Of a DNA stretch of 53,488 nucleotides, positions 1,053-17,200 are shown piece after piece (positions within the stretch are counted from its first letter, which is position 1; each line of letters starts with the position of its first letter). The notes under the pieces are model-generated. The model was not told the DNA's origin. It saw only the letters and a program-made list of their open reading frames with translations, and did not search any database. Both the position numbers and the translations under genes were made by a program. The DNA comes from a virus (Duplodnaviria > Caudoviricetes): the IMG/VR virus record IMGVR_UViG_3300020470_000011, positions 1 to 53,488 of that record; one strand, given 5' to 3'.

Positions 1053-1088
1053 TATTTAACATTATAGCAGATTAAATTAATATTGCAA
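1053..1088 (-). promoter_or_regulatory. sigma70-type promoter plus late TAAATA motif
   Basis: TTGCAA-16 nt-TATAAT with TG extension, followed by TTAAATA, upstream of the gene at 1037. Confidence 0.55.
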
Positions 1089-1793
1089 GCGTTTGTGCTC
1101 GTCTTGATATAATTTCTCGACAGTGATGGGGTCAAACCCTGCTATACCATGGTCCATGATAGGTGGTTCGTTGTTTACCTCATGTCTGGTAAATAGTCCC
1201 TGCCTCACATCTGGGTCCATGAATTTAAATGTCATAATATATCTATTCAATGCATAACGTGGTGTTGGTGGTCTACCTGTGTGTGGTATACGACCATCAA
1301 ACATTACAACACGACCAGGTCTAGGTGTAACTGCACGATGTGCATCTAAGTTATGGTCATAGAATATAGTTTCGCCACCCCATGATGGATCCCACTTGGT
1401 ATTTAAATATATTAATACTGTCTTATTACTTGGCACATCATGTGGTGCATCTACATGAATACCAGGTGTATTTCCAAATCTAAGCACATTAATATAACAT
1501 GCATACATATGGGCACGAGGGGGCAAATTTGGGCATTTCGCTTCCAAATATCCAAGCACATCAAGATAGAGTGGATCATTACTTGCTTCAAGTCCTGCTG
1601 CTTGGAAGTAAGTAGGATTCTCAATAGGACAGAAATTATATAACTGATGAGTCCAATAACTATGCCTCATGTCAACATCAGGTGTATCTGGTGTTGGTTG
1701 CTCATCAGTTCTAATAAACCTATAAGGTAAGTATACTACCTTATACATCAGTTCATCAGATGCTAATCCAGTATCTACTACATCAATTAGCAT
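1077..1793 (-). CDS. Fe(II)/2-oxoglutarate dioxygenase (prolyl-hydroxylase-like)
   Basis: HVD...GGETIFY...PRPGRVVMFDGRIPH...RY: HxD/H triad and 2OG-binding Arg. Confidence 0.85.
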   Translation of the reverse strand: MLIDVVDTGLASDELMYKVVYLPYRFIRTDEQPTPDTPDVDMRHSYWTHQLYNFCPIENPTYFQAAGLEASNDPLYLDVLGYLEAKCPNLPPRAHMYACYINVLRFGNTPGIHVDAPHDVPSNKTVLIYLNTKWDPSWGGETIFYDHNLDAHRAVTPRPGRVVMFDGRIPHTGRPPTPRYALNRYIMTFKFMDPDVRQGLFTRHEVNNEPPIMDHGIAGFDPITVEKLYQDEHKRLQY

Positions 1794-2406
1794 AATAGTG
1801 CACTCCAATAATATTCATTGACATAACATATCTATCATCGTTTGAGTTATTCTTCTCAGTCTTGTGTGTCATCCATCCTGGAAAGAATAATACATCATTT
1901 GTTTTAACTTCAATAGGTGCCCAATCATATCCTTCATCATAATAATCATATACTAATGGTTCACCCATTTTATATGGTTGCAATGGATTCTTAACTAGTA
2001 ACCTACCACTATTCTCTGGCACGTGTAAATATGCAGCAACTGCAATAATAACATTCTGATGATGATGCTCTTCAGTGTATGCACCAGGTGGATGTACATT
2101 TATCCATGATGTATCTAATTGTTTAGTTAAATTCATGAATCTCATTTGTGACCATACATCATCAATGGTGCGGTACAAATAATTCTCTTGAAATTTCTTA
2201 AAACAATCCCAGTTGTGAGGTGGATCTCGTTTACTTATTATAACAGATGTGGTGCCACCATCTTTCTCATGTGTTTGAGCATTCTGTCTAATTATTTCTT
2301 CCTTAGCATGGTCTAAGTAAGTATCAACCTTATCTTTAATAGTATCAAATTCAAAATCATACTCACCCTTGAATATGTAAGGATGTGGATTAATGGGGAA
2401 GGGCAT
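1783..2406 (-). CDS. Fe(II)/2OG oxygenase, TIGR02466-like
   Basis: WINVHPPGAYTEEHHH...YLHVPENSG...FFPGWMTH...RYVMSMN; start at MPFPINPH. Confidence 0.85.
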   Translation of the reverse strand: MPFPINPHPYIFKGEYDFEFDTIKDKVDTYLDHAKEEIIRQNAQTHEKDGGTTSVIISKRDPPHNWDCFKKFQENYLYRTIDDVWSQMRFMNLTKQLDTSWINVHPPGAYTEEHHHQNVIIAVAAYLHVPENSGRLLVKNPLQPYKMGEPLVYDYYDEGYDWAPIEVKTNDVLFFPGWMTHKTEKNNSNDDRYVMSMNIIGVHYYAN

Positions 2407-3079
2407 AATATTTTCTATCAACTGTTTTCTTATAAGGTAATAGATGTTGCATAGGTATACTACACGACAGTCTCTTCTCACTTGGTTGTGCCCAGTGATA
2501 ATGTCTAACAGGAATGTATAACACATCACCTGGTTTCATTATAACATCTATCGCACAGTCTAGGTCATCTTCATTAACATTTAAATTATATGCTAATAGA
2601 TTACTACATCTATTATTATATACTTTCCAATGTGTTTCACCCTCTACCTGTAGAATAAAATTATTAGCGTAGTCCTCATGTACCTTAAATGATTTACATT
2701 CACCTATACCTGCATAGATGTGGAATGACCCCACTATCTTAGGAAAATGCTCTTCTAACTCTTTTAATATATCCTGTCTCTTTCTATCAATCCACTCAAA
2801 CTTCTCAATAATACATGTATGACCTTCAGCAAATATATTCATCATATCTACTGGGTCTGCATGATCTTCAGACCAGAAACGTGGATACTTAGGATACTCT
2901 ATAAAATTATTTGTATTCCTATTAATAAACTTTATATCATAGAATTGAGGATTATTTAAACACCATTCAACATCACTCCATGTAACATAGTCCTGAGGGT
3001 TGTCACATATACCAGGAAAATACTCTGGTTGATCATTTATAGTCCAGTCTCTAGACTTTAGCAGCGAAGATATCATCAT
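2390..3079 (-). CDS. JmjC/cupin-4 (ROX-like) protein hydroxylase
   Basis: FKVHEDYANNFILQVEGETHWKVY...MKPGDVLYIPVRHYH. Confidence 0.85.
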   Translation of the reverse strand: MMISSLLKSRDWTINDQPEYFPGICDNPQDYVTWSDVEWCLNNPQFYDIKFINRNTNNFIEYPKYPRFWSEDHADPVDMMNIFAEGHTCIIEKFEWIDRKRQDILKELEEHFPKIVGSFHIYAGIGECKSFKVHEDYANNFILQVEGETHWKVYNNRCSNLLAYNLNVNEDDLDCAIDVIMKPGDVLYIPVRHYHWAQPSEKRLSCSIPMQHLLPYKKTVDRKYYALPH

Positions 3080-3707
3080 CAGATAAGAAATTTAAATTCA
3101 ATGCAACTCTAAACTTGTGCTCACCATTTGGATTAGATGATGCATGGTATTGATGACCATCAAATACAAATAGTTTATTCGCTTCAGGTTTAACTCTCAA
3201 CCTCTCAGTATATGATTGTGTCCTCCCCTTATACCATCTCTCATCAATATTAAGACCTGAATTTGGGTCATCATACTGATCAAAGAATACAGTATCACCT
3301 GTACAATCATGCAAATAAAATAATGCAGCATAATGATCCTTCTCACTGTCTGTGTGAGGTGCATTATGGTGCATCTTACCGTTATTTAATTGTAATGCTA
3401 ATCTAACTCTTAGAAACTGTACAGGGCATGGCAAGGCATCTTGCACACTATCTAATACTGGTAACCAATGTGATAACCATGGTGACTCAACACCCTCTTG
3501 ATCTAATAATACATGTGTAAATCCTATTGCTTTCTCATCCTCTGGCATGTCCAGTAATTTAGTATCACCAAACATAAAACCATTAGTACTATAACTCACA
3601 TCATCTGATAAGAAATACCAAGGGAATCCATTCATTCCCTTAACTTGATCAAATAAGCGAGAGAGGTACGTTGGTGTTAATAGGTTTTCTACTTGGATAT
3701 ATTTCAT
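3051..3707 (-). CDS. Fe(II)/2OG dioxygenase
   Basis: PHTD...GDTVFF...FVFDGHQYHASSNP...RVALNLNF. Confidence 0.85.
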   Translation of the reverse strand: MKYIQVENLLTPTYLSRLFDQVKGMNGFPWYFLSDDVSYSTNGFMFGDTKLLDMPEDEKAIGFTHVLLDQEGVESPWLSHWLPVLDSVQDALPCPVQFLRVRLALQLNNGKMHHNAPHTDSEKDHYAALFYLHDCTGDTVFFDQYDDPNSGLNIDERWYKGRTQSYTERLRVKPEANKLFVFDGHQYHASSNPNGEHKFRVALNLNFLSDDDIFAAKV

Positions 3708-4329
3708 TATCACGTAGTTGATCAGAGAATAATTGTATATTAAATGATAGAGATATTCTATCATCATCACTTGAACTTGGGTCTACTGCATGCATTAACC
3801 ATGAAGGGAATAGAATAATATTATTCTCTTGAGGTGTAATATAATGCTCTAACTCATTAGCAGGATTCTCGAAGTGATCAAAATTATCTTGACAACCCCA
3901 TGACTCCTTCATACTGGTGTAATTAAAATCTCTAACAAATTTAATATCACCACTACAACATGTAGGTACTTTAACATAGAATACACCAGATAGCAAACTA
4001 CCTGCGTGGTGATGTATGTGATTCTTATCACCTCTAGTATTAATATTAATCCAAAGGTTAGTTACCCTTAAACTAAAATCTCTACATCCAAAATCCTCAG
4101 CAACTGCATATGCCATATGCTGCAGTCTTTGATGAAATGATGCTAATGGTGTTTGATCAATATAAGGTGGACGGAAATCATTTGATTGCCACCCTCCATC
4201 ATTAGATGCTACTCTACCTCTTGGATCTTCATCCTTAACATGGTATGCAAATGCTCTAATCTCATCTAGGTCTAAATCAAATGTATCCTGCCACAATTGG
4301 GTAGGAAATAATAATTCAGTCTTCATCAT
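3649..4329 (-). CDS. Fe(II)/2OG oxygenase, TIGR02466-like
   Basis: LFPT...SNDGGWQS...WININ...HHH...SGVFYVKVP...FPSWLMHAV...RISLSFN. Confidence 0.9.
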   Translation of the reverse strand: MMKTELLFPTQLWQDTFDLDLDEIRAFAYHVKDEDPRGRVASNDGGWQSNDFRPPYIDQTPLASFHQRLQHMAYAVAEDFGCRDFSLRVTNLWININTRGDKNHIHHHAGSLLSGVFYVKVPTCCSGDIKFVRDFNYTSMKESWGCQDNFDHFENPANELEHYITPQENNIILFPSWLMHAVDPSSSDDDRISLSFNIQLFSDQLRDNEIYPSRKPINTNVPLSLI

Positions 4330-4651
4330 TAAATACGAAATCTCTCTCAGTACACTCTGGATCTACATGCTTCTTATATAATGCTAGTGCTTCAACTGCA
4401 CCAGATAGTTTATTAAGCAAGTCTTTCTTAGTCTGCAATTCTTCTAGTGAAATCTTAGTAACTGTTGAGGTGTAGTGCATATTATCTAATGCTTTCTGCA
4501 ATTTAATATACTCTGCTTTCACAGTTTCATGTTGTTGCAAGAAGTTCATTACCAATTCATCAAAGGTAATAAGACCTTCAAGTGGTTTCACTTCCTGCTC
4601 TTCAATACCTGCTTCTTTAGCAAGGTCAACTACTTTAACGTCTTCTGGCAT
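4316..4651 (-). CDS. hypothetical coiled-coil protein
   Basis: 111-aa helical ORF translationally coupled within the enzyme operon. Confidence 0.7.
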   Translation of the reverse strand: MPEDVKVVDLAKEAGIEEQEVKPLEGLITFDELVMNFLQQHETVKAEYIKLQKALDNMHYTSTVTKISLEELQTKKDLLNKLSGAVEALALYKKHVDPECTERDFVFNDED

Positions 4652-5535
4652 TATTCAAACCTCTGTTTGTTTTTATTTAGTGCGAGTACTGCTTTATGTT
4701 TATCAATCCTTTCCTTCAATGATACCATTTCAATGAAGTGCATGTATCTATTATAATCCATGACTTTATTGTTTCTAATGTCCTCATCGTTGGCAGTCTC
4801 AATAACAACCTCCCAGTCCTTCCTATTAAATAGATTCCTATCCATTGGAATCCATTGTGCTAATGGTGTACCTGCTTTAATTAGATACTCACCCTCTTCT
4901 ACAGCATGCCAAAAGAGTTGCATATTAACTTCATAAGAGTATGAAGGATCTACAAATCCTGTTGCCACACTGAACCTTGGTTCAGGATAATAAGGTACTG
5001 GTATCTGCATGAATACAATATCCTTATGTGCTTGCACTCTCCAAGGTAATTCTAATTTAATAGTTTGCTCTGTTACTTCTCGTTGTTGATCAACTAAATC
5101 ACGAATACCTTCTGTCTGCTCTGGCACATGTCCTTTGACATATGTTGGACCTCCAGAGTCAAACATTACCTGTGCAACCCAACCAAAATCTTTCTTATCA
5201 CCAGTCATTTTGATAATAATATCTGCTGGCACTGTTACTACCCAACCTGTATCCATTAATCCTGTTAATGCAGGACATGTTACAGCATGGTTGAATAGTC
5301 CATCATAATTACCATCATAGTTTCCTGATACTTTGGAACTATAATGCTCCCACATATTCTTTAGTTTAACTGCAGGACATTTAGATGTCCTATTATAATA
5401 TGTTTTAAGGGCATCTTCTCTCCATTTCCTATGTAATTTATTAGCAGGAATCCATGGATGTAGTTCTGCTACACCTGGATGTAATGAGTAGAATCTAACC
5501 CATTTCTTATTCTTCTTTTTAAACAAATTAAACAT
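4651..5535 (-). CDS. hypothetical protein, possible dUTPase-like beta-clip fold
   Basis: 294 aa; CPAL..MDTGW, LELPWRV, TGFVD and IKAGTPLAQWIP resemble beta-clip-like proteins; function unknown. Confidence 0.55.
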   Translation of the reverse strand: MFNLFKKKNKKWVRFYSLHPGVAELHPWIPANKLHRKWREDALKTYYNRTSKCPAVKLKNMWEHYSSKVSGNYDGNYDGLFNHAVTCPALTGLMDTGWVVTVPADIIIKMTGDKKDFGWVAQVMFDSGGPTYVKGHVPEQTEGIRDLVDQQREVTEQTIKLELPWRVQAHKDIVFMQIPVPYYPEPRFSVATGFVDPSYSYEVNMQLFWHAVEEGEYLIKAGTPLAQWIPMDRNLFNRKDWEVVIETANDEDIRNNKVMDYNRYMHFIEMVSLKERIDKHKAVLALNKNKQRFE

Positions 5536-7105
5536 AGATATTATCCCTTAAATATTCATAATGTGTTGGTTGCTGTTGTGCCCATTGTAGCATATCTTGA
5601 CGCTCTTGTTGATATTTTGTGTGGATATCATTAATAGCATATTCAACTTCATGTGTCAATTTCTCCCTGAATAAACCTTGACTTAATGGAGAAATATTCT
5701 GCCCAGCAGCAATATAAAGCAAACCTTCAATACGACGTGGATTAAAGAATCTCTTGTCCATACTATCTATCAAATTTGCATAATCTTCTAGTGCTGATAC
5801 AGTAGACCTAGGGTCATTTACTAAATCAGGTTGGAAGGTCAGAGTATCTGTGCAATCTCTCCAATAATCATTATCCTCACGTGAACTGAGAGCATAATGT
5901 AATGCTACAAAGTTTTTAAATCCTTCTAATAGATTGTCAACAGTATGATTATATGCATCTCTATCGAATTTAGTTACCTTACCGTGTCTACATGCTAACT
6001 GATCTGATAAAAATATCAAGTTTTCATGTGTGGTCATTAAACCAGTAGATTCTAATGGTTCCAAGAATCCATAAGATAAACCAATACCAACTACATTCTT
6101 TTCCCATGCTACCTTATGCTTACCATGCTTAATCTTAATAGGCATTAATAGGCATTCTTGGGCAGATTTGGGATTATATCTCTTAGCAAGATATTGTCTG
6201 AATTCCCACTCAGCATCTGCATCACTAATATATTTACTGGAGTATACATATCCAGTCCCAACATTTTCCCACAGTGGTATATTCCATATCCATCCAGCAT
6301 TCATTGCTACACAATCTGTGTAGGTCTGCATCTGTTTCTCTCTATCTGTATAATCAATATGTGTTGCTAATGCCCTATCATTAAATAATAATTTATTAAA
6401 TGGTTTAAACTCTACACCCATATGTTGCTCAAGGAGTAGTGATTTAAATCCTGTGCAATCAACAAATAGATCAGCACTAACCATACCACCATCATCTGTA
6501 GTAACACCCTTGATACTACCATCAGGTCTCTTTAATACATCACCAACGTTACCTTTAACATAATGAACACCATTAGGTATAGCAATATTATCTCTTAGAT
6601 ACTCACCAAATTTACCAGCATCGAAATGATATGCAGTATCATCCTTGAATTGCCATTTTGATCCAGGTATCTCATCTGATATCCTACATTCATCTGCTAA
6701 GTATGTTGACTTATTAATAAACCTAGAGAATTCTTCAGGTGGATATAATTCAGGATGCATACATCTAATCTCAAAGAATCTCATGAGATTATCCTTCCAA
6801 TCACCTATATCCATCCTTCCAAATGGATACTGAAATGTCTCACCATTACCATCTCTAAAATTAGTAAACCCAATAGATGTCTTATAGGTTGCATTACATG
6901 CTGGCATCCAATCTCTATCTTCCAGTCTCAACCTCTTAAGGAACCTATTAAAATGTCCTAGTGTTGATTCACCTACACCAATAGTTTTAATATCAGGTGA
7001 TTCAATAAGACATATTTCTATATTAGGATGCTCTGTGGATAGAATAGCAGCAGACATCCACCCACTACTACCTCCACCTACAATACAAATAGATTCAACT
7101 TGCAT
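5528..7105 (-). CDS. flavin-dependent halogenase (tryptophan halogenase/PrnA family)
   Basis: GGGSSG FAD motif, GVGEST, ATYK (catalytic Lys), WIWNIP, FLEPLESTG. Confidence 0.92.
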   Translation of the reverse strand: MQVESICIVGGGSSGWMSAAILSTEHPNIEICLIESPDIKTIGVGESTLGHFNRFLKRLRLEDRDWMPACNATYKTSIGFTNFRDGNGETFQYPFGRMDIGDWKDNLMRFFEIRCMHPELYPPEEFSRFINKSTYLADECRISDEIPGSKWQFKDDTAYHFDAGKFGEYLRDNIAIPNGVHYVKGNVGDVLKRPDGSIKGVTTDDGGMVSADLFVDCTGFKSLLLEQHMGVEFKPFNKLLFNDRALATHIDYTDREKQMQTYTDCVAMNAGWIWNIPLWENVGTGYVYSSKYISDADAEWEFRQYLAKRYNPKSAQECLLMPIKIKHGKHKVAWEKNVVGIGLSYGFLEPLESTGLMTTHENLIFLSDQLACRHGKVTKFDRDAYNHTVDNLLEGFKNFVALHYALSSREDNDYWRDCTDTLTFQPDLVNDPRSTVSALEDYANLIDSMDKRFFNPRRIEGLLYIAAGQNISPLSQGLFREKLTHEVEYAINDIHTKYQQERQDMLQWAQQQPTHYEYLRDNIYV

Positions 7106-8570
7106 ATAGTGTCTCCTTATAATATTCAATGGGCAATGGCATATCTCTCAATTCATCTTCATCCCATCTCATGTCATTATAATCTGGAACATCATACCCA
7201 AAGAAATCCATCTCATTGTATATAACATCATTAAATGGATTCCATCCATGTCCTGCCATAATACAGAACAATCCTTCTTTTGCCAAGTTATCCATAGAGA
7301 ATTTATCAGCAAAATTAGATGACTCCTCCATAAAACTAACCTGTGCACCTGTAATAGAATCCTTACCTCCATATGGATATCTAATATTACTTACATGCCT
7401 CCAGTATGGTGTATCATTACGATTTGTCATAGCATAATGAGATGCAACAAATGATGCGAATGCATCAAATGTATAGTTACAATGATTATTAAATGTATCT
7501 CTCATAAACTGTGTGACATTCTTCTTCATCCCATCTTGGGAATGCATAACACGTAAGAAGTATAGCAGATAATTATGGATAGACAATAGACCATTTGATT
7601 CTAATGGTTCAACAAAACCAGCAGACAATCCAATGGATACTACATTACCCTTCCATGCCTCCTTCTTCCTACCTGTCTTAAATTTAATTAACCTAAACTC
7701 ATGATCATCATCTACACCTAAATGCTCTTTAAATTCTTGCTTCGCTGCTTCCTCACTTAGATAATCACTACAGAATACATATCCAGTACCAATCCTATTC
7801 CATGTTGGTACATTCCACACCCATCCAGAGGATAATGCAGTGCAGTCTGTCACTGGCACCATCTCCCAATCTGGATCACGACCATGCATACCATATGGTA
7901 TTTGTGTCACCCATGCTCTATCATTTGGTAGATAGTCATAGAAATCCTTCCAAGGTGAATCATTTAACAATGACTTAAACCCTGTGCAATCGAAATATAA
8001 ATCTGCTTCTGGTAAATTATTTACATCAACATCTTCTACATAATGCTTCACACCACGTGGTGTAGCATACTCATCTCTTAACCAATTTGCAAACTTAACT
8101 GCATTGAAATGGAAACCACTGTGCTTACGCAATCTATAATACTGCTCTGCATACTCACCTATTGGTAACCTATTCCATTTAGAACACTTTGCTGCAAGAT
8201 AATAATCATCAGCAAACTTATCATAACCCCACTTTGCCCTATATGCATACCAAAACCAGAAATCAGGTGTATAACCATCATTCCTAGGTACACCAAAGGG
8301 ATATTGCCAAGGTATATCATTAACATCATGAAAGTTTGTGAATCTAACACTAATCTTATAGGTAGCATCACATGCTGCCATCCAATCCTCATCCTGCAAC
8401 CCTAGAAAATTTAACCAGAGTCTAAAGAATTGAGTAGTAGATTCTCCCACACCTGTAGGTGGAATGCCTGGAGACTCGTACAAAGAAATATCCCAGTCAG
8501 GGTATGCCTTGACTAGGGTACTTGCTGTCATCCAACCAGCGGTTCCACCGCCAACAATAACAATCTTCAT
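7095..8570 (-). CDS. flavin-dependent halogenase (tryptophan halogenase/PrnA family)
   Basis: GGGTAG, GVGEST, ATYK, WVWNVP, FVEPLESNG. Confidence 0.92.
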   Translation of the reverse strand: MKIVIVGGGTAGWMTASTLVKAYPDWDISLYESPGIPPTGVGESTTQFFRLWLNFLGLQDEDWMAACDATYKISVRFTNFHDVNDIPWQYPFGVPRNDGYTPDFWFWYAYRAKWGYDKFADDYYLAAKCSKWNRLPIGEYAEQYYRLRKHSGFHFNAVKFANWLRDEYATPRGVKHYVEDVDVNNLPEADLYFDCTGFKSLLNDSPWKDFYDYLPNDRAWVTQIPYGMHGRDPDWEMVPVTDCTALSSGWVWNVPTWNRIGTGYVFCSDYLSEEAAKQEFKEHLGVDDDHEFRLIKFKTGRKKEAWKGNVVSIGLSAGFVEPLESNGLLSIHNYLLYFLRVMHSQDGMKKNVTQFMRDTFNNHCNYTFDAFASFVASHYAMTNRNDTPYWRHVSNIRYPYGGKDSITGAQVSFMEESSNFADKFSMDNLAKEGLFCIMAGHGWNPFNDVIYNEMDFFGYDVPDYNDMRWDEDELRDMPLPIEYYKETLYAS

Positions 8571-8590
8571 AACGAATTATATCTGTGGTT

Positions 8591-8619
8591 ATTATACTAT
8601 GGTGGTGACCAACCGTCAA
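8591..8619 (-). promoter_or_regulatory. sigma70-type (early) promoter for the halogenase/oxygenase operon
   Basis: TTGACG-17 nt-TATAAT, about 20 nt upstream of the ATG at 8570. Confidence 0.75.
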
Positions 8620-9022
8620 CCCACGCATCCCATGCCTTACGACCCTCTAGTTGAGTCTTCTTAGGATCTGGCACAAACTCTGCAATGGTACCTGGTTTAG
8701 TCGTAGTTGCCTTTACATTAGCAACATGATCCTTCCACGTAGTAGTACCATTAACCTGGTCTTTATACATCATATCCAACTGGTCTCCCACATCACCATA
8801 AGCGACATTACGGGCGACTCTTGCTAATTCTCTAAGATCTTCTTGTGTAGACCTATGGATTACCTCACCATTGACCATCTTATGTTCATAAGTTGTGTCA
8901 TCAGGTACTTCCATCCACTTCATATTTGCATCTGCACCTTCATAGATTTCAAATTTGTCTGCGGTATCAACAATATCTGTGATTTGACCGCTATCGCCAT
9001 TAACGATTGCCCATTTACTCAT
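8597..9022 (-). CDS. putative tail-fibre-associated/assembly protein
   Basis: R..AYGDVGDQLDMMYKD..GTTTWKDHV motif typical of small proteins next to marine phage fibre genes; GAAGGAG RBS. Confidence 0.55.
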   Translation of the reverse strand: MSKWAIVNGDSGQITDIVDTADKFEIYEGADANMKWMEVPDDTTYEHKMVNGEVIHRSTQEDLRELARVARNVAYGDVGDQLDMMYKDQVNGTTTWKDHVANVKATTTKPGTIAEFVPDPKKTQLEGRKAWDAWVDGWSPP

Positions 9023-9044
9023 GATAGTTTAATCTCCTTCGTTG

Positions 9045-9052
9045 TTATTTAT
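9045..9052 (-). promoter_or_regulatory. T4-like late promoter
   Basis: ATAAATA in the intergenic gap. Confidence 0.55.
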
Positions 9053-9873
9053 TAACCGTAGTATTCATAGACTACCACGATTCCCTCTCGACCTCTTGCA
9101 CCTCGGTTACCAAACTGAGATCCATTACCACCTGCACCCCATGCACAATGTGATTGATGCCTGTGTGAATAGTTACTTTGGTTGTGTGATGCAGGTTGGG
9201 AACTACCAAAATATGAAGCACCTGCAGCATGGTTGCCATAAGATGCCCAGTTACCATAACCATTACCTCCACCGCCATAAACGTTGAGGTCACCACCTGA
9301 TCCATTACCACCATATCCACCATTGTGTTGTCTGTCACAATTAGCACCTACTCCACCAGAAGCAGAGCAATATCCACCAAATGAGGATGAGTTACCATTA
9401 CCACCACAACCAGCATAGTTAGTACCACCACCTGGGTTTCCTACTGTAACTGATACTGAAGATGTATTAGTAACATCAATCACACGACGTGACATACCAC
9501 CAGCACCAGCAGATTCACATTTACCTGAACCTCCTCCACCAGCACCGATAACAACAACTTGAATTGATTTACAGTTATTAGGTCTATTCCAAGTACCACT
9601 AGATGTCCATACTTGCATAGATCTAAATCCTGCACCACCTCCACCACCTTCAAATTCTGTAGACCACGTTAGTTGACTTCCATCATTGCTGAGGAATCTA
9701 CCTGACTGACCTGAAAGAGATGGAACATTATAATTTGACGACCCTGTAATATCTCCGTTAACATTCAGATTGTTAACCTTAAGAGTTCCATTCGCAGTTA
9801 TCGAACCACTGCTGAAGGTAAACCCTCCCAGTCCTGAAATATCAGTGACGCTAGAAACCTTAAGAACACTCAT
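9052..9873 (-). CDS. glycine-rich fibre/adhesin-like protein, paralogue 3
   Basis: MQVWTSSGTWNRP..V.V.GAGGGG Gly-rich domain ending GIVVVYEY. Confidence 0.75.
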   Translation of the reverse strand: MSVLKVSSVTDISGLGGFTFSSGSITANGTLKVNNLNVNGDITGSSNYNVPSLSGQSGRFLSNDGSQLTWSTEFEGGGGGAGFRSMQVWTSSGTWNRPNNCKSIQVVVIGAGGGGSGKCESAGAGGMSRRVIDVTNTSSVSVTVGNPGGGTNYAGCGGNGNSSSFGGYCSASGGVGANCDRQHNGGYGGNGSGGDLNVYGGGGNGYGNWASYGNHAAGASYFGSSQPASHNQSNYSHRHQSHCAWGAGGNGSQFGNRGARGREGIVVVYEYYG

Positions 9874-10679
9874 CCGAAAAACTCCTGTACAATTACAACA
9901 CCTTCACGACCTCTTGCACCTCTGTTACCATGCTGAGATCCATTGCCACCTGCACCCCAAGCACAATGTGACTGGTGTCTGTGTGAATAGTTACCCTGAT
10001 TATGTCCAGCAGGTTGTGACCCACCTAAGAATGACACGCCAGCAGTATGGTTTGCGAATGACCAATAAGATCCATAACCATTTCCTCCACCACCGTAGAT
10101 ATTTAAATCTCCACCTGATCCATTACCACCATATCCTCCTGCATGCTGTCGTGAGCAGTTTGCTCCTACTCCACCACTTGCACTACAATAACTACCAAAC
10201 GATGATGAGTTACCATTACCACCACATCCTGAATAGTTAGTACCACCTCCTGGATTACCTACAGATACAGATACTGAAGAAACATTTGTTACATCTATTA
10301 CTCTTTCAGAGCAACCACCAGCACCAGCAGATTCGCAGTAACCACTGCCTCCTCCACCAGCACCTACTACAGTGACAATAATAGATGTGCAATTTTGTGG
10401 TCTAGTCCAAGTACCACTAGATGTCCAAACTTGCATAGACCGAATACCAGATCCAGCAGTAACTGCTGACCATTCAAATCCACTACCAGTTGACTTTAGT
10501 GCTTTACCTGCGTTACCACCGAGTGAGGGTACAATCCATGTGGATCCACCTCTTATGTCACCATTAATGACTAATGCAGAGCAAGTAAGAGTCGTTGACG
10601 CTGTGATACCTCCACCAGCGAGCATGAATCCTTCTGCCCCAGTTAAATCTTTTAATGCTGATACTTTAAGTTTTGACAT
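9870..10679 (-). CDS. glycine-rich fibre/adhesin-like protein, paralogue 2
   Basis: Same architecture; near-identical C-terminal domain. Confidence 0.75.
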   Translation of the reverse strand: MSKLKVSALKDLTGAEGFMLAGGGITASTTLTCSALVINGDIRGGSTWIVPSLGGNAGKALKSTGSGFEWSAVTAGSGIRSMQVWTSSGTWTRPQNCTSIIVTVVGAGGGGSGYCESAGAGGCSERVIDVTNVSSVSVSVGNPGGGTNYSGCGGNGNSSSFGSYCSASGGVGANCSRQHAGGYGGNGSGGDLNIYGGGGNGYGSYWSFANHTAGVSFLGGSQPAGHNQGNYSHRHQSHCAWGAGGNGSQHGNRGARGREGVVIVQEFFG

Positions 10680-10699
10680 AGGTCAATGATTCCTACTGC

Positions 10700-10706
10700 T
10701 ATTTAT
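10700..10706 (-). promoter_or_regulatory. T4-like late promoter
   Basis: ATAAATA overlapping the upstream stop codon, followed by AGGA RBS. Confidence 0.55.
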
Positions 10707-11512
10707 CCAAAGAACTCGTGTACTACCACAACACCTTCTCTTCCTCTCGCTCCACGGTTTCCATGCTGTGATCCATTTCCACCAGCACCCCAGGCACAAT
10801 GGGATTGGTGTCTATGAGAGTAGTTTCCTTGGTTGTGAGATGATGGTTGAGTACCACCCCAGTAACTAGCACCAGCAGTATGATTACCATATGAGTGGTG
10901 TGAACCATATCCACTTCCACCACCTCCATATATGTTTAACGCTCCACCAGATCCGTTACCGCCATATCCTCCTGCATGTTGTCTTTCACAATTTGCTCCA
11001 GCACCACCTGATGCTGAACAATAACCTCCAAAACTAGAAGAGTTACCACTTCCACCACAACCAGAGTAATTAGATCCTCCACCTGGGTTTCCGATAGTAA
11101 CTGATACTGAAGAAACATTTGATACATCTATTTGTCTTTGTGAGGTACCACCTGCACCTCCTGATTCACAAAATCCTGAACCACCGCCACCTGCACCTGT
11201 ACAGGTAACCATAATTGTAGAACAACCGCTTGGTTTATTCCACGTGCCATTAGATGTCCAAACTTGCATAGACCTGACACCTGAAGCAGAAGACAGGGTA
11301 CCCCATGTTAACGCACTACCATTATTGCTTACATATTCATCTGTATGACCTGAGGGATCTGGGAGAATATAAGCGGATGACCCCGAAATGTTGCCATCAA
11401 TTTGAATGTCATTAACAGTTAAAGTACCATTAGCAGTGATACCACCAGTAGAGAATGTAAATCCACCGATGCCACCTAAGTCTTTAATAGCTCCAATATT
11501 TAACTGTGCCAT
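10703..11512 (-). CDS. glycine-rich fibre/adhesin-like protein, paralogue 1
   Basis: Same architecture; near-identical C-terminal domain. Confidence 0.75.
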   Translation of the reverse strand: MAQLNIGAIKDLGGIGGFTFSTGGITANGTLTVNDIQIDGNISGSSAYILPDPSGHTDEYVSNNGSALTWGTLSSASGVRSMQVWTSNGTWNKPSGCSTIMVTCTGAGGGGSGFCESGGAGGTSQRQIDVSNVSSVSVTIGNPGGGSNYSGCGGSGNSSSFGGYCSASGGAGANCERQHAGGYGGNGSGGALNIYGGGGSGYGSHHSYGNHTAGASYWGGTQPSSHNQGNYSHRHQSHCAWGAGGNGSQHGNRGARGREGVVVVHEFFG

Positions 11513-11535
11513 ATTATTGGTGCTTCCTTACTTTT

Positions 11536-12096
11536 CTATTTATCATTATTTATGTCCGCAAATATATTAAACGCAATAGAAATGCGGTCTTCATCACTAT
11601 CATTCTCTTCTACATCATGTTCCAACCAACAAGGGAAAAATAATACCATCCCTTCCTCTGGGTCTATGTAGTGATATTCATGACCATCATTAAAATATTC
11701 ATGGTCAGGCATACATGTCATCAATGGACCTCTAGGGTCATAAAATCTAATTCTTCCTGAATTCTCAGGCACCTTCACATAATACACACCAGAAAGAAAA
11801 ATAGAAGTATCGAGGTGAACATGTCTTTGGTTCCTGTGACCCTTAGAGTTGACATTAACCCACGTGAAAATGGAGTATTCTTGAATCGGTTTATCTTCTC
11901 TCCTAGGGCATGCTTCTGTAATCGCATTAATCCATTCCTCATTGTAAAACAATTCTCCTTGATAACCACCTATATTAGAAAAAGTTTTAGATGGAGTATT
12001 GATAGCAAACTCTCTAATTTCTTTTTCCAATTGTCTGTTATCTAGATTTAATATATCACAATGTACTGGAGTTGGAAAGAAATTAAATGTTCTCAT
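11536..12096 (-). CDS. Fe(II)/2OG oxygenase, TIGR02466-like
   Basis: FFPT..SNIGGYQ..WVNVN..RHVH..SGVYYVKVP..FPCWLEHDV..RISIAFN. Confidence 0.9.
   Translation of the reverse strand: MRTFNFFPTPVHCDILNLDNRQLEKEIREFAINTPSKTFSNIGGYQGELFYNEEWINAITEACPRREDKPIQEYSIFTWVNVNSKGHRNQRHVHLDTSIFLSGVYYVKVPENSGRIRFYDPRGPLMTCMPDHEYFNDGHEYHYIDPEEGMVLFFPCWLEHDVEENDSDEDRISIAFNIFADINNDK
11537..11553 (-). promoter_or_regulatory. T4-like late promoter (tandem motif)
   Basis: Two ATAAATA copies upstream of 11512. Confidence 0.5.
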
Positions 12097-12383
12097 CACC
12101 ACTTACCCAAGGGACAGGTAGTATACCTAGTGTCCAATGTTTTATTGATTAATGCCATCACAATACGTTTGACATCCATAAAACATCCACACTCCATACA
12201 CTGACGTGTAACTGGATTCCACCTATCACAAGTATAGCATATTTCTATGTTTTTTGCAGCAATAGGGGCAAAATACTCTTTCTTTTGGTCAAGATCAGGC
12301 AAAATGAAGTCCCTATATTTACTGGACCATATTAAACCTGTTTCTTTTCCATTAATTACTTCTTTATCACCATCTTTACGCAT
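12096..12383 (-). CDS. small Cys-rich putative Zn-binding protein (DUF6171-like)
   Basis: CYTC...CMECGCFM...CPLGKW. Confidence 0.7.
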   Translation of the reverse strand: MRKDGDKEVINGKETGLIWSSKYRDFILPDLDQKKEYFAPIAAKNIEICYTCDRWNPVTRQCMECGCFMDVKRIVMALINKTLDTRYTTCPLGKW

Positions 12384-13380
12384 AATATGTAAGTACTACT
12401 TTTCCTGGTCCTCCCCAATGAGTACTATCACCCCTGCCATCATTATGTCTTCCACCCCTACTATAATTACTCTCATAATAAGGACTGGATGCCATCTGAT
12501 TAGGGACATTCTCACCATCTCCAGTGTATGTGGCAGCATTAGAGACGCTATATGACCCACTACCTCCTATATATCCTGATCCGCCACCGCCATTTCCACC
12601 GTTGGGTGACCCACCGCCACCTGCACCGCCAAAATAGCCTGCTCCCCCGCCACCAGCGTTGCAACCGTTGCCACCAGCAGCAGAAGCGTAGTTACCACCA
12701 TAGATTTGGTTAGGCCACCCTACACCACCACTACCTTCACCACCTCCGCAAGCAACGCCACCACGGAGTTGTTGACCATTACACTGACCACCAGAGGTAC
12801 AAGAACCTCCACCAGTCTGTCTATAACTACCTCCACCACCTTGATTTCCTGCAATACCACCAGAGTTTGATGGGTTTCCTCTTTGTCCTGAGTCTCCTCC
12901 TCCTGCACCACCACCGTGGCTATTTCCATTGGATGAGTCACCAGAACCTCCACCACCACCTGCTAACATAATAGAAGCGTTCCAGTCTGTGTCAGTATTA
13001 TTTCCATTCCAATTACTTGTAAATATTCCCGTATATCCTGCTCCTGACCCGTTATTCTGTCTACCAGGTCCACCACCACGACCAACAATGATTTTTAATG
13101 TGCCACCTGCTGATGTATTGATATCTCCTTCTGAGTATCCTCCTGCACCACCACGTGTATTAGTATCTCCTTCTGCACCACCTCCAGGTCCATATACATA
13201 TGCTCTTATACTATTTACATTTCCTGGAATACTAAATGATTGTTGTCCACCAGTATAGGTAAAGGTGCTCTCGGTGAAGGTACCACCGCCACCTCCTCCA
13301 CCACCTGCGCCACCACCGCCAGAAGCAGTGGGTCCAGATGATACAGGTAAATGTTGTCCAGAAAATCCAAACCTACCCAT
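12376..13380 (-). CDS. glycine-rich fibre/adhesin-like protein
   Basis: FTYTGGQQSF..GPGGG..AGGGGG repeats ending GKVVLTY; polyglycine domain. Confidence 0.75.
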   Translation of the reverse strand: MGRFGFSGQHLPVSSGPTASGGGGAGGGGGGGGTFTESTFTYTGGQQSFSIPGNVNSIRAYVYGPGGGAEGDTNTRGGAGGYSEGDINTSAGGTLKIIVGRGGGPGRQNNGSGAGYTGIFTSNWNGNNTDTDWNASIMLAGGGGGSGDSSNGNSHGGGAGGGDSGQRGNPSNSGGIAGNQGGGGSYRQTGGGSCTSGGQCNGQQLRGGVACGGGEGSGGVGWPNQIYGGNYASAAGGNGCNAGGGGAGYFGGAGGGGSPNGGNGGGGSGYIGGSGSYSVSNAATYTGDGENVPNQMASSPYYESNYSRGGRHNDGRGDSTHWGGPGKVVLTYYA

Positions 13381-13385
13381 AATTT

Positions 13386-14246
13386 TTATCCGTAATTAGA
13401 ACCAGAGCCAAACACTGTGTATGACTCAGTTTGTGACCCCGTTAGTGGTTTATTTATGATTGAAAATGATGTTACAGCATAAGTGCCACTCATTCCTGGT
13501 GCACTACCACCTGACCACTGAACAGTATGAGCTACTCCATTAAGATTAAGACTAGTTGGAACACCTGAACCACCAGCATTCTCACCAACTACAGTGATAC
13601 CAAAGGCAACATCTCCAGACGTTGGTACATTAGTTACTGACAGGGTATAATCTCCACCACCTGTCCTAGTAATATACAAAGAGTTGTTGTCATTGAAATC
13701 ATGACTAATATTACCACTAGAAGTATAGTGCTTCATCTCCTCTGCTGTCTCAGCAAAGTTAAGAATACCTGTTGATTTAATATCAACAGCAGTCACATCA
13801 GATACCTCAAGACTCATATCATCTTGACCACCAATAATATTCCACGTGGCACCATTCTCAATAGTGACTGTAAAACCGTTTGCAATAGTAATTGGACCTG
13901 CACTGAATCCATTAGTGAATTCAACACCACCATTAGCAATTGGACCTATTGTTAAATTCTCTGATATTGTGGTACCATTAGTCCTAACAATACTATTCTC
14001 ACCAACTGAGGGACCACCACCTCCAACTGTTGTCCAACCTGGGACACCTTGTTGAGCATCTTGTTTATAAATCTGTGCTGCATCTTCGGTGCTGTTGTAC
14101 ACCAAAGTACCATAAGCAGGTGCACCGAGTGCTGTTACTGCTGCTTGGTTTAAATTAGGAAGATTGAGTTGCTCAGTGACTTGTAGTGCCTCCATAATGG
14201 CACGAGTCGTTGCATCAATCTGATTACCAATTATCTTGGTGGACAT
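13386..14246 (-). CDS. virion structural/tail-fibre protein
   Basis: GTLVYN fibre motif; NGFSAGPITIANGFTVTIENGATW; C-terminal WSGGSAP beta domain. Confidence 0.65.
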   Translation of the reverse strand: MSTKIIGNQIDATTRAIMEALQVTEQLNLPNLNQAAVTALGAPAYGTLVYNSTEDAAQIYKQDAQQGVPGWTTVGGGGPSVGENSIVRTNGTTISENLTIGPIANGGVEFTNGFSAGPITIANGFTVTIENGATWNIIGGQDDMSLEVSDVTAVDIKSTGILNFAETAEEMKHYTSSGNISHDFNDNNSLYITRTGGGDYTLSVTNVPTSGDVAFGITVVGENAGGSGVPTSLNLNGVAHTVQWSGGSAPGMSGTYAVTSFSIINKPLTGSQTESYTVFGSGSNYG

Positions 14247-14275: not shown

Positions 14276-17200
14276 TTAGATGACCAATTCACGTATCTGT
14301 ATGTTATCTCCAGTTTGAGGTGTTGTACCTACAGCGAAGTCAACAGCATTACCTGTTACTGTGTAGTCAATTCCTGGTCTCTGGCAGACACCATTTAAGA
14401 ATACCATTAATGAATATGCTGTATGTCCTGGAGAAATTGCAAACGTATTTGTAGTGCCATCTCCTGCATACATCACACCATTGTTACCATTATTAACACC
14501 AGTAGCAAGGGTATACTTGTCTGCACAACCATACTTACCAGTTACGTCAATATCACCAGTAACCTTCACGTTACCAGTAATCTTCATTCTATTGAGTGCG
14601 TCTGGTGCTTCACCAATACCATAATGAGTTACACCACTATATCTTTGAGATGTAATAGGTGCAGTATCGGATAGACCAAACTTATACCAAATACCAGTGT
14701 CATATATCCATCCTAAGAATGTACCTGGAGTCCAGTCAATATTATATGCAATATCACCACTATTATAAGCAGCACCTGCTGTAATAACTGGGTTACCAGT
14801 ACCATCATCCTCTGCTAGGAATGTATTCCTTAAAACAGTACCATCATCGTTAGATAAGGTAAAGTTTAGTGTCTGCAATGTATCCTGTGATGTTATCTTC
14901 TTCTGGAAGGTAACAGGACCAGAGAATACTGATTCCAACTGGTTAGATGCACCACCAATAACCGTTAGTTTATCGGTAAGCACAATCTCACTGAAGGTCT
15001 CAATAGTTGTACCTTCTTCACCCAACACGTTAAGTTGAGCAATATCTTCGTTAGTGATCTGACCTGTAACTGGGTTGATAACCTGGTTACCAACAAACAA
15101 CTCACCATCACTGTTAACACCAGAGTAGTATGCAACACCTGCTGCTTCTTTCAGTGACTGTGATAATCTAACTGCATCTTTACTTAATACTTCTACCTGT
15201 GTAGATGGGAATGCAGTTGAGTAGTTACCTGGACCAAATCCAAGATACTCAAACGTGTGACCTGATGCTCTGAGGATTGAGTATCTTCGCAATTCACAGA
15301 GTAGAGGTTGTACTGAGTTATCAGCATTTAGTTTGAGTGCAATCTTTCTTTCTTCTGCTTCACCTAGTCGTGCAGTAACACTAATACCATTCAATACGTT
15401 AGATGTAGTATTATATCCTAGGTTATTTTCAGATTCTAGTAAGAAGAATTGTGATGTCTCTTTAGTGACACTTCTTTGTGTATCCTCATTAGGAGTAGGA
15501 GATGCACCATCAGTAGTAGTAACTACACCTAGTGTCTCATTACTTGCAACAGATACAGATGCAGCAGGGTCTGCTACTGGGTTGTCTCTGTCAAATGCAG
15601 GATATAAATCTACAGTTGCCTGTGAGAATGCAAAGTCATTAAAGTTAGACGTTGAAGGTGATACTGAAGCATTCAATAGCGTCAGATAGTATACACCGTC
15701 AGTCACACCTCTTACAAATTCTTGATGAGTCTCTACAGCATATATGTAATATGTTTTACTGTATGCTGGACTATTGGTTTCACTACTTCGTGGTTGGATA
15801 ACAAAACCTGTAATAGGTGCTCTGGGTACAGGGAAGGCATCCTTGTCCAATACATAGCGGTACCTGTAAATCCTATCAACCAAGTTTCTAGCATCTGGTA
15901 CCCTCCTTACAAATGTAGTTGGTGTGAATCCAAGGTTTTGATATAGACTGTTTGCTTGCAGTGTAGTATAGATGGTATTTGCTGCTCCATCTACTTGTAA
16001 ATACCACTGACTATTTGCAGTATCAAACTTAATTGGTGAATCATCATCACCTGCCCTAGTACCTGTTACGCTAGTGCCTGAGGGGTTAATGTCTGCATAG
16101 TGTGTAGTAGGTTCACTAGCACCACTGGCAATCAAGAGCACATATAGTCTATCTGGGGTGTTAACGTCATCACGTCTAGCACCTACAGTATATCCTTGCA
16201 CCTTACTTGGTGGTCTAGCAGTCTCTACAGTATAACCATAGAGGAATAGTTTTGTTGGGTCTGCAACACTCTTCGTCTTATTAATATCAATGGTTACCCA
16301 GTTAATTGATATCTCATTAACATCATCTAATGACTTAGGTGGGATACAGTGTGTTATCTGCCCTGCTTTATCCTTCGTAAACGCTGCTGCTTTAAAGCCT
16401 TTAGATCGGAGAGAAGTGTTACCAAAGTTTGAGTTCGAGTTGGTAATCGAGAGGTCTCCTCCACTGTCAGAGAAGAAATGATCTCCGAATCCGACTGCGA
16501 ACACAGAGACGACTTGGATGAAAGCATCATTCGACGCTTTAATATGTCGATGTCGCCATCCCTTTCGGTATTTGGCGAGTCCATTAATGTGAGCACCTGA
16601 TCCCGCAGCTTGGGGTTCATACGCTCCAGTATTTTGGTTGTAAAGTACGAACGCTCGGTCATCTTTCTGTAGCGAAATGCCAGTAAACTGGGCAACAACC
16701 ATCGACTTAAATCCAGTGGCTTTGGCACCATCTGCATGCATGCCGTTAATACCCCAGACTGAGCGGAGACTACAGTTGAAAACATATGGAGACGCTGAGT
16801 CAACAGTGTCAATCTCCACTTTCACTAGGATGTTGCTACCTAGTGCATTACCAGATGGTTCAGAGGACATCTGGTAAGTAAATTGGTTACCTTGTGCACT
16901 GGTTACCAAGAATGATCCATTATAGAGGAGAGCATCTTGGTCAGTAGGACCAGTAACACCAGATATATTAACAGCGACACCCACGGAGAACCCATGATTC
17001 TTCGGGTTACCGAGTTCATCGACTGTAAATGCTGTTGCAGTTTGTCCATTTCTGATAATCTGAGATACAGCGAATTCATCAGAAATAGGACCAACGATTC
17101 TGTTTTCCTCGACCCTTGCTTGCATCTGGTCTTGTGCAGGAATACCAGAGGTGTCAGGAATAACAGCGTATCCTTTTGATATCTTTTGGTAATATAACTC

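Follow-up and report, generated by a model that had tools for sequence, protein, structure and literature searches.

The 53,488-base virus record IMGVR_UViG_3300020470_000011 of the IMG/VR database, analysed over its whole length and called the window below, carries at 1077-13380, on the minus strand, a block of genes in which three Gly-rich proteins of family PF21722 and a fourth Gly-rich protein are found together with two flavin-dependent halogenases and six oxygenases of the 2-oxoglutarate (2OG)/JmjC type. The main result of the analysis is that these enzymes are linked to the Gly-rich fibre genes in a near-obligate manner. As the most likely single reading, at a probability of roughly 0.38, we propose that the enzyme cassette is functionally tied to the fibre module and that its enzymes modify the fibre or some other late virion protein. 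A previous sequence-only reading of this DNA had described the region as a candidate tailoring system for virion proteins. Its account of the halogenase, oxygenase and Gly-rich gene content was borne out by the open reading frames (ORFs) and Pfam with small corrections, and its central idea survives the linkage test, leaving the interpretation as a whole partly supported.

Linkage of the enzymes to Gly-rich fibre genes

The linkage was quantified from two scans of IMG/VR, one with halogenase B of the window as query (42 loci) and one with an alignment of the Gly-rich proteins, from which the best 80 of 217 matching stretches were kept, corresponding to 76 loci. The ORFs of each locus were labelled by blastp with the proteins of the window, and the 115 loci fetched were reduced to 74 unique loci by removal of duplicates. 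Three loci (L040, L042 and L050) have too little flank at the first halogenase and stand outside the linkage counts. The halogenase follows directly after the gene of a small protein, t, in 64 of the 65 loci that carry Gly-rich and t genes and at least 600 nucleotides downstream of them, and conversely Gly-rich and t genes lie directly upstream in 61 of the 62 halogenase loci with at least 2.5 kb of upstream DNA. The single exception is the same in both counts (L123) and has an oxygenase inserted between t and the halogenase; in all loci compared, t is placed between the Gly-rich genes and the halogenase. Two halogenase copies are present in 33 loci and one copy in 29. Where at least 3.5 kb of downstream DNA is available (57 loci), one or more oxygenases are present in 56 loci, two or more in 55 and a JmjC gene in 51, and in 52 the next gene encodes P, a 294-residue protein that is missing from some halogenase-bearing loci, for example those of S-WAM1 and P-RSM6. 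The sequence-only reading had made its case depend on genomic linkage with Gly-rich fibre genes in related phages; the linkage found is very strong, and an objection from lack of linkage fails because the halogenase comes directly after t in 64 of 65 loci. In tblastn searches with two Gly-rich queries, which were insensitive owing to the low-complexity filter, 12 of 12 and 11 of 11 phage records carry VirX1-type halogenases. In a test for mosaic composition, the pairwise identities of s, the Gly-rich protein, t, halogenase, P and JmjC protein were all correlated (Spearman 0.57-0.88) and few pairs were discordant; for example, of 30 pairs whose first Gly-rich genes are near-identical, 4 have halogenases at most 75% identical, an outcome that weighs on neither side.

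The same gene order is found in isolates of several genera, namely Syn9 (gp38-gp54), P-TIM40, S-CREM1, S-WAM1, P-RSM6, S-SZBM1 and some S-RIM44 isolates. Syn9 gp38-gp54, Syn10 and P-TIM40 gp042-gp054 resemble the window in having Gly-rich genes annotated as "tail fiber assembly", a small protein, two halogenases, a gp43-like protein and a run of oxygenases. The window differs from them in that it has three Gly-rich copies, an embedded oxygenase and a Cys-rich gene, that five oxygenases follow downstream, and that a sigma-70-like site precedes the halogenase; its DNA is too diverged from theirs for megablast. Judged by sequence, the series of Gly-rich fibres, small protein, halogenase(s), dUTPase-like protein and oxygenases is the published arrangement of Syn9 gp38-gp54 and P-TIM40. 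We therefore regard the block as a further example of a published, functionally unassigned gene arrangement, to which the present analysis adds the Pam3-like fibre model, the predicted dUTPase-like core of P, the recurrence in 64 of 65 informative IMG/VR loci, the occurrence in more than one setting and the replacement seen in an S-RIM44 isolate.

The cassette occurs in at least two genomic settings. In the first, represented by the window, the block comes after a series of fibre genes (v, f, F and s); in the second, seen in S-RIM44 and many IMG/VR loci, it is located after a 10.5-kb structural gene and before the neck gene gp13. S-RIM44 (Vellamovirus rhodeisland44) provides a natural pair of isolates with and without the block. 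Isolate KX349294 has the entire block, and KX349295 has in the same place a 294-residue tip-like protein that is not Gly-rich but has a related N-terminus, followed by genes for 121, 199 and 66 residues, of which the 199-residue protein is by eye a PF13759 oxygenase-like protein. The downstream flanks of the two isolates are 95-97% identical, and the upstream fibre gene is diverged. A further variant is L040 (1-21596), where two halogenases bracket a long run of ORFs of 200-240 residues, at least six of them matching oxygenases of the window and one being P-like. These enzymes are convergent with a fibre cluster on the opposite strand that encodes three paralogous tip-like proteins of 311-319 residues, not Gly-rich and by eye C1q/TNF-like, with a 113-residue gene and a 169-residue, by eye oxygenase-like gene behind them; no Gly-rich gene is present within the 21.6 kb of L040. 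A single oxygenase among fibre-region genes is also found in the halogenase-free phages S-RIM2 and P-RSM1, and likewise in P-RSM6 and in the window.

A profile of the Gly-rich proteins (A1) found no such gene in the carriers of short-type halogenases S-MbCM6, Syn1 and HTVC008M, nor in KX349295. Phage S-B64 was considered as a case of unlinked co-occurrence, its Gly-rich gene being 86 kb from its halogenase, and was set aside; the case is uninformative because the S-B64 gene is a member of a sister subfamily, which is common in phages absent among the halogenase matches listed.

The window is an entire IMG/VR record with an estimated completeness of about 29% and stems from a T4-like cyanomyovirus, with best protein matches in Kyanoviridae and genes that include the gp5 baseplate hub, a transaldolase, the tail tube, a baseplate wedge, a gp32-like single-stranded DNA-binding protein, PhoH, ThyX and purine genes. 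Within 1077-21410 every gene is encoded on the minus strand, and the packing is tight. Megablast with the first 14.3 kb gave no close isolate (coverage at most 2%). DNA near-identical to 3500-13400 (58-96% of sampled words) is present in marine or seawater metagenome runs of 11 studies from 2014 to 2025, so the phage lineage is widespread.

Proteins of the block

The enzymes were previously said to include two halogenases of the PrnA type. Both match PF04820 far above the cut-off (356.3 and 304.4 bits against 21), and one of them can be named more closely as an orthologue of VirX1, the Syn10 halogenase of structure 6qgm. This is halogenase B (533 residues, 5528-7129, minus strand; PF04820 E value 3.3e-106), which matches 6qgm with an E value of 4.2e-156 over residues 9-532 and is 46.8-49.9% identical to the Syn10, Syn9 and P-TIM40 genes (46.8% for the Syn10 and Syn9 gene). 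Halogenase A (491 residues, 7095-8570, minus strand; PF04820 E value 1.8e-90) is a VirX1 paralogue encoded upstream of it (6qgm, E value 2.1e-85). Flavin-dependent halogenases are characterised by a GxGxxG flavin site, a WxWxIP motif and a catalytic Lys and Glu (PMC8407142, excerpt). Halogenase B has GGGSSG, WIWNIP, ATYK and FLEPLES, and halogenase A has GGGTAG, WVWNVP (with Val in place of Ile), ATYK and FVEPLES. Both proteins thus keep the motifs GxGxxG and WxWx(I/V)P, the lysine of ATYK and the glutamate of EPLES and are predicted halogenases, and the full-length match of halogenase B to VirX1, together with the conserved motifs, is a likeness that in itself assigns no function. VirX1 forms a trimer, its large open site accommodates bulky phenols, and it halogenates many small heteroaromatics in vitro; the excerpt of PMC8407142 lists no gene cluster for it. 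The 39 window proteins scanned include no recognisable flavin reductase, a role that a host enzyme could take. In the Pelagibacter phage HTVC008M (8424-10383) the genes of the small and large terminase are separated by those of a PhyH-type oxygenase and a short-type halogenase, within a late structural block.

Of the six oxygenases, five score above the cut-off of a family model (PF13640, PF13759 three times and PF08007). Oxygenase 6 (188 residues, 11536-12102, minus strand) is embedded among the fibre genes and matches PF13759 (E value 9.1e-26) and TIGR02466 (93.6 bits, above cut-off); it has an HLD...H motif, and its relatives in the PDB, 3bvc and 2rg4, are uncharacterised. The other five are encoded on the same strand downstream of the halogenases. 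They are oxygenase 5 (226 residues, 3649-4329; PF13759, E value 3.2e-23; TIGR02466, 97.8 bits), oxygenase-like protein 4 (3051-3770, likely start MKYIQ, about 218 residues), the JmjC/cupin protein oxygenase 3 (229 residues, 2390-3079; JmjC_2 PF08007, E value 3.2e-18; HED...H), oxygenase 2 (1783-2529, likely start MPFPIN; PF13759, E value 4.2e-16; TIGR02466, 55 bits, below cut-off) and the prolyl-hydroxylase-like oxygenase 1 (1077-1808, likely start MLIDVV; PF13640, E value 8.7e-12; HVD...H). The count of five Fe(II)/2OG or JmjC enzymes given earlier for 8570-1077 is confirmed by Pfam for four; the remaining one, protein 4, has DUF6445 as best Pfam match, below the cut-off (17 bits against 24), and is placed here by PHROG instead (phrog_274, E value 1.1e-34; phrog_81 2OG oxygenase, E value 8.9e-7) and by its HTD...H motif. 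An HxD/E...H iron triad is thus present in oxygenases 1, 3, 4 and 6, and oxygenases 5 and 2 deviate by eye, with HxH at the position of HxD in oxygenase 6 and with Asn at the acid position, respectively. These two proteins may be inactive or have an altered chemistry.

The ROX-type JmjC enzymes (NO66, MINA53) and the prolyl hydroxylases (PHD/EGLN, viral collagen prolyl hydroxylases) resemble the window's enzymes in their catalytic JmjC or double-stranded beta-helix core with HxD/E...H, and both families modify proteins. Oxygenase 3 matches NO66 and MINA53 with an E value of 2.4e-8 over about 95 residues (104-199). The dimerisation and winged-helix domains of the ROX enzymes (NO66, MINA53, YcfD) are absent in oxygenase 3, since it has 229 residues against 442-489 in the matched chains and residues 104-199 alone match. 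Oxygenase 1 is weakly similar to the HIF prolyl hydroxylases (E values 0.003-0.008, the best being 0.003).

A label of oxygenase 1 as "FlmC family 2OG-Fe(II) oxygenase" was dropped, its NCBIfam score being 75 bits against a cut-off of 240; the FlmC of Caulobacter has been described as cytidylyltransferase-like (PMC7591256). In Syn9, P-TIM40 and the loci L007 and L008, oxygenase-like genes are annotated as "DNA endonuclease V" or "minor coat protein", names that come from phrog_274 and phrog_1644. For proteins with 2OG-oxygenase features these labels look wrong. In total eight oxygenase-type genes are present in the 53 kb. While adapting to poor hosts, phage S-TIM4 acquired a mutation in a non-particle 2OG gene, and a mutation-rich stretch over ORFs 23-27 is also shown (PMC6224464, excerpt).

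Upstream of the enzymes are the fibre genes, all on the minus strand. The Gly-rich fibre proteins 1 (273 residues, 9052-9873), 2 (269 residues, 9870-10679) and 3 (269 residues, 10703-11512, with GATAAATA upstream) belong to Gly_rich_2 (PF21722; E values 3.8e-9 for protein 2 and 4.2e-8 for protein 3), and are followed by t (141 residues, 8597-9022; phrog_1787, E value 3.9e-24). Four Gly-rich fibre-like genes had been counted from the sequence; PF21722 supports three, and the fourth (334 residues, 34% Gly, 12376-13380; phrog_1589, E value 1e-7) is without a Pfam match. A search of the PDB sequences with the Gly-rich sequence profile gave no match, which made a fold search necessary. An AlphaFold2 model of Gly-rich protein 2, built from 73 sequences (mean predicted local distance difference test score, pLDDT, 82), was compared with the PDB by Foldseek and found to resemble the tail fibre of the cyanophage Pam3 (7ypx_A, E value 1.7e-8; 7yfw_a, E value 2.4e-7; probability 1.00), with template modelling (TM) scores of 0.53-0.56, 26-27% identity and 269 residues against 280. 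The next matches were two tail-tip chains of mycobacteriophage Bxb1 (9d93, E value 1.4e-6), followed by the glycine-rich domains of ALK and LTK. Pam3 gp24, 280 residues long, forms a trimeric fibre in which a docking helix is combined with a TNF-like domain and a receptor-binding domain rich in glycine; it requires the 162-residue chaperone gp25 (PMC9608196, excerpt).

The earlier assignment of the Gly-rich genes as fibre genes is thus strengthened by a predicted fold that resembles a receptor-binding fibre. From the model we read the three proteins of about 270 residues as complete small fibres of the Pam3 gp24 type and not as "assembly" proteins. In Pam3 a small gene (gp25) comes after the fibre gene (gp24), as t comes after the Gly-rich genes, and it is because the window repeats this layout three times and then has one small gene that we read the Gly-rich genes as complete fibres and the 141-residue gene as chaperone. 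By position and size, t is a probable assembly chaperone of the Gly-rich fibres; it has no sequence match to Pam3 gp25, and the Atlas gave weak leads only, to XkdW and DUF2977. Unlike Pam3, the window has three fibre paralogues and a t protein without sequence likeness to gp25, and its fibre proteins are putative virion components.

In a comparison with three sequences of the sister subfamily, the halogenase-linked Gly-rich subfamily proved to have invariant residues of its own, including E116, Y149, N174, H179, H233, H235, R253 and R258; these residues are candidates for modification sites, and nothing more. Tyr149 and an HxHxxH cluster that is likewise invariant in the halogenase-linked proteins are not kept in the sister subfamily. 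The Gly-rich proteins of the window's clade have 6-8 Cys each, at positions where other clades mostly have other residues.

P (294 residues, 4651-5535, minus strand; phrog_7084, E value 1e-50) had been described as beta-clip-like, a description we correct to a dUTPase-like core by fold. In the AlphaFold2 model (pLDDT 87.6) the predicted core covers approximately residues 98-232, with extra helices at both ends and with helices in place of the C-terminal dUTPase arm. Foldseek matches it to dUTPases with an E value of 6.4e-4, a probability of 1.00 and TM scores (target) of 0.5-0.6, and the P profile reaches Wsv112 dUTPase with an E value of 0.23. D105, R166, G193 and D196 are invariant, and the stretches PAD, PWR, GFVDPSY and AGTPLAQ, found by eye, are presumably the counterparts of dUTPase motifs, of which dUTPases have five on a trimeric beta-jelly-roll core. 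P has no dUTPase match in Pfam, and DUF6065 was found in 2 of 36 members only; in the Atlas this domain is present on 16-30% of the members of the clusters nearest to P. No fused forms of P were found among longer proteins, which is weak evidence.

Between P and the oxygenases is the gene of a 111-residue protein, c (4316-4651, minus strand), the putative coiled-coil protein of the sequence-only reading, which matches no family, with CTAAATA 23 nucleotides 5' of its ATG. A 95-residue Cys-rich protein (12096-12383, minus strand; CxxC...CxxC; phrog_13558, E value 4.1e-7; no Pfam or NCBIfam match) is encoded among the fibre genes. The proteins of 334, 95, 111, 141 and 294 residues have no Pfam family, and all except the 111-residue protein belong to PHROG families of unknown function. 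Upstream of the block are s, a 286-residue fibre-associated protein (13386-14246, minus strand; phrog_29506, E value 9.4e-81) preceded by AATAAATA, and the upstream neighbour of the module, the 1190-residue tail fibre protein F (14276-17848, minus strand; phrog_529 tail fiber protein, E value 0), with CTAAATA 24-30 nucleotides 5' of its ATG.

Promoter-like motifs and predicted expression time

The late promoter of cyanomyoviruses is NATAAATA, their early promoters are sigma-70-like, and both together may give a middle pattern (PMC2984593, excerpt). We therefore counted TAAATA 8-50 nucleotides before the start codons in 84 unique loci, where the background is 2.6%. The motif is frequent before the fibre genes v (23/25), F (31/35), s (43/51) and the first Gly-rich gene (51/77), and likewise before t (66/84) and c (28/31), and it is nearly absent before P (2/61), the first oxygenase (0/64), the second oxygenase (0/60) and the JmjC gene (3/60). 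The window has 8 CTAAATA sites, every one of them on the coding strand, and its late-type motifs include AATAAATA at 9046-9053, upstream of t, and CTAAATA at 4674-4680, upstream of c. Because TAAATA is enriched before t and c and near-absent before P, the oxygenases and the JmjC gene, the enzymes seem to be read from the late-type starts before t and before c.

A second type of signal is located immediately upstream of the halogenases. The window has a sigma-70-like promoter TTGACG-17-TATAAT at 8591-8619 (minus strand), which matches the consensus at 11 of 12 positions, is the best site in 18 kb and lies about 20 nucleotides before halogenase A. Sites of at least 10/12 precede the first halogenase in 28 of 82 loci (background 1.1%), whereas no other gene of the module has them in more than 2 loci. 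The 28 loci all belong to the clade of the window, which has 37, and the near-consensus form of the site is TTGACA-17-TAnnnT. In the other clade (B) the first halogenase is preceded by TAAATA in 27 of 44 loci and by neither motif in 17. The gap from t to the first halogenase is 8-57 nucleotides in many loci. Since the sigma-70-like site joins the late-type starts in the window's clade, the halogenase unit may there be expressed both early and late. The tight packing stressed in the sequence-only reading, which had called 8570-1077 a gap-free, overlapping operon, is confirmed, but the region is probably not one simple operon, because of the internal sigma-70-like site at 8619-8591 and the late-type CTAAATA at 4674-4680.

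What the enzymes may modify

In the mechanism that we favour, the Gly-rich proteins would be small trimeric fibres with a TNF-like and a glycine-rich domain, and the 141-residue protein t would be their chaperone. The halogenases, P and the 2OG/JmjC oxygenases would be made at least partly from late-type promoters, alongside the virion genes, and the enzymes would covalently modify a protein made at that late time. The likeliest target would be side chains of the neighbouring Gly-rich fibres (candidates Tyr149, His and Asn) or another late virion protein, and the outcome would be altered receptor binding or particle stability. Besides the linkage, this reading is favoured by the settings and the S-RIM44 swap described above, by the match to the Pam3 fibre, by the late-type motifs and by the fact that two oxygenases have enzymes that hydroxylate proteins (NO66/MINA53 and the HIF prolyl hydroxylases) as their closest relatives of solved structure. 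The detection of a 2OG oxygenase in a virion preparation of S-SCSM2R (PMC12801897, excerpt), the mutated 2OG gene of S-TIM4 and the large open site of the VirX1 trimer, with no gene cluster listed for it, are on the same side. The gene identities, folds, catalytic motifs, linkage and promoter-like motifs are results of the analysis; the chaperone role, the expression time, a protein substrate and any modification at all are inferred.

The sequence-only reading had gone further and called the system "RiPP-like", after ribosomally synthesised and post-translationally modified peptides (RiPPs). MibH halogenates a peptide Trp in the tailoring of such a peptide, and in MibH-type systems a flavin halogenase likewise stands beside a ribosomally made protein with no non-ribosomal peptide synthetase (NRPS) or polyketide synthase (PKS). 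The label is unfit, because no precursor, leader or recognition element was found: among the family matches of the region there is no precursor peptide, leader, protease, recognition element or exporter, small ORFs not having been systematically searched for precursors. Unlike the RiPP systems, which have a leader and core precursor, the putative substrate here is a folded fibre of 270 residues. The window halogenases are moreover less similar to 5uao, which we take to be MibH, than to free-Trp halogenases.

Several observations weigh against a tailoring of fibres or other virion proteins. The window's own proteins served as seeds for both scans, of which the nearest matches were kept; the loci are therefore related to one another, and inheritance of gene order may account for much of the linkage. 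The swap between the S-RIM44 isolates could also reflect a joint exchange of everything between the conserved flanks. Related fibres exist without the enzymes: the sister subfamily is present in 88 records (S-RIM2, S-RIM12, P-RSM1, S-BM1 and others) of organisms that are absent among the halogenase matches listed, and the single invariant Trp of the fibres, W91, is also found in this subfamily. The Pam3 fibre folds in E. coli with its chaperone alone and without modifying enzymes (PMC9608196, excerpt). The enzymes also occur elsewhere. Cyanophage halogenases of the short type have psbA, talC and hli as neighbours or stand between the terminase genes, in some cases next to a PhyH-like oxygenase; the long S-B64 halogenase is located beside gp46-like genes, far from fibres. 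Two further phrog_81 2OG-Fe(II) oxygenases of the window (27486-28148 and 47339-47941, minus strand) are away from the fibre tips, one of them beside gp5, and 2OG oxygenases near uvsY in S-B64 show that such genes are scattered over these genomes. Halogenase B is nearer to free-Trp halogenases (E value 1e-74) than to 5uao (E value 1.6e-50, partial), the nucleotide-enzyme fold of P hints at a nucleotide ligand, and the sigma-70-type site points to an own, possibly early transcription unit for the halogenases.

The virion proteome of S-SZBM1 (30 proteins; PMC9146016, Table 1) belongs to the same side of the balance. Homologues of v, f, F (ORF52) and s are present, the s homologue S-SZBM1_51 with 1 peptide, and that table contains no Gly-rich protein, ORF50 or halogenase. 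This non-detection is weakened by the small number of usable tryptic peptides (7-30 residues) in the Gly-rich proteins, 3-8 for each, and modified peptides would escape that search.

The foremost rival, which we consider possible though somewhat unlikely, is that the enzymes are auxiliary and directed at the host, acting on host proteins (for example ribosomal ones, as ROX-type JmjC enzymes do) or on metabolites, and that the block is a variable accessory island whose genes are inherited together. Several observations suit it as well as they suit fibre tailoring. The sigma-70-type promoter conserved ahead of the first halogenase (28 of the 37 loci in the window's clade) fits this explanation, early cyanomyovirus promoters being sigma-70-like (PMC2984593, excerpt), as do the short-type halogenases among psbA, hli and talC and the fibres that exist without enzymes (the sister subfamily and Pam3). 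Oxygenases are in addition numerous and scattered: they occur in 14 of 16 genomes, where they were read as having 2OG or DNA-repair functions, and hot spots near gp5 have been described (PMC3037559); S-CREM1 has ten oxygenase ORFs in nine clades (PMC9964418). A mere accessory island agrees less well with an order of Gly-rich, t, halogenase, P and oxygenase genes that is kept down to about 42% fibre identity in two to three settings, while the DNA further downstream varies, nor would one expect from it the swap of the entire block along with the tip gene in S-RIM44. The short t-halogenase gaps given above argue in the same direction, as do the late-type motifs that precede t, c and, in 27 of 44 clade-B loci, the halogenase.

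A more specific form of fibre tailoring is that the natural substrates of VirX1-type halogenases are side chains (Tyr149, His) of the phage's own Pam3-like fibres, that the oxygenases hydroxylate the same or neighbouring virion proteins, and that the halogenated, hydroxylated virions released by these abundant marine phages are a swappable, virus-encoded means of retuning host recognition. In this full form we hold the idea to be doubtful.

Improbable, in our view, is a small-molecule chemistry in which free tryptophan, indole or a phenol would be turned into a halogenated, oxidised antibiotic, grazing deterrent or signal, as has been guessed in print for phage prnA. After VirX1 the nearest solved relatives of the halogenases are indeed free-tryptophan halogenases (E values 1e-74 to 1e-56), oxygenase 2 has a faint likeness to PhyH and methylphosphonate hydroxylase, VirX1 accepts many small heteroaromatics in vitro (PMC8407142, excerpt), and the idea of antibiotic protection has been stated and called speculative (excerpts of PMC2984593 and PMC9964418). 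Against this, the scan of 39 window proteins gave no gene for a scaffold, a carrier, a ligase or an exporter. The absence of NRPS, PKS and transporter genes stated in the sequence-only reading agrees with this set, in which not all small ORFs were included. The lack of a listed gene cluster for VirX1 and the two oxygenases that resemble protein hydroxylases also argue against a free metabolite as substrate, and the near-obligate position behind a probable fibre chaperone is left unexplained. Finally, that P handles a pyrimidine nucleotide which the halogenase or oxygenases modify, altering phage DNA or RNA, is highly improbable: the dUTPase-like core of P with its motif-like stretches and the proposal of 2OG oxygenases as DNA-repair enzymes (PMC3037559) would suit it, but the oxygenases have no TET/JBP or AlkB family match in Pfam and NCBIfam, the cassette is in the fibre region away from the replication genes, the phage encodes its own thymidylate synthase, the fold match of P is modest with its C-terminal arm replaced, and P is missing from some halogenase loci.

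The published guesses for these enzymes are antibiotic protection (excerpts of PMC9964418 and PMC2984593), DNA repair or 2OG balance (PMC3037559, excerpt) and halogenation of host metabolites. The literature searched contains no proposal that links them to fibre modification, and PMC7238727 does not mention these genes. VirX1 is a much-used biocatalyst, and a halogenase of its type here belongs invariably to a module at whose start are Pam3-like fibres together with their probable chaperone; for the 2OG oxygenases of marine phages there have so far been guesses only (DNA repair, 2OG balance, antibiotic protection). The question of the role of VirX1 thereby becomes a concrete experiment on the culturable phages Syn9, Syn10 and P-TIM40, and on S-RIM44 isolates with and without the block. 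Should the fibres turn out to be unmodified, the block would still mark a conserved enzyme set for a search for host targets. If they are modified, this would be the first halogenated virion and a new route for phages to change host range with the fibre sequence unchanged, and possibly a biological sink for marine bromide and iodide.

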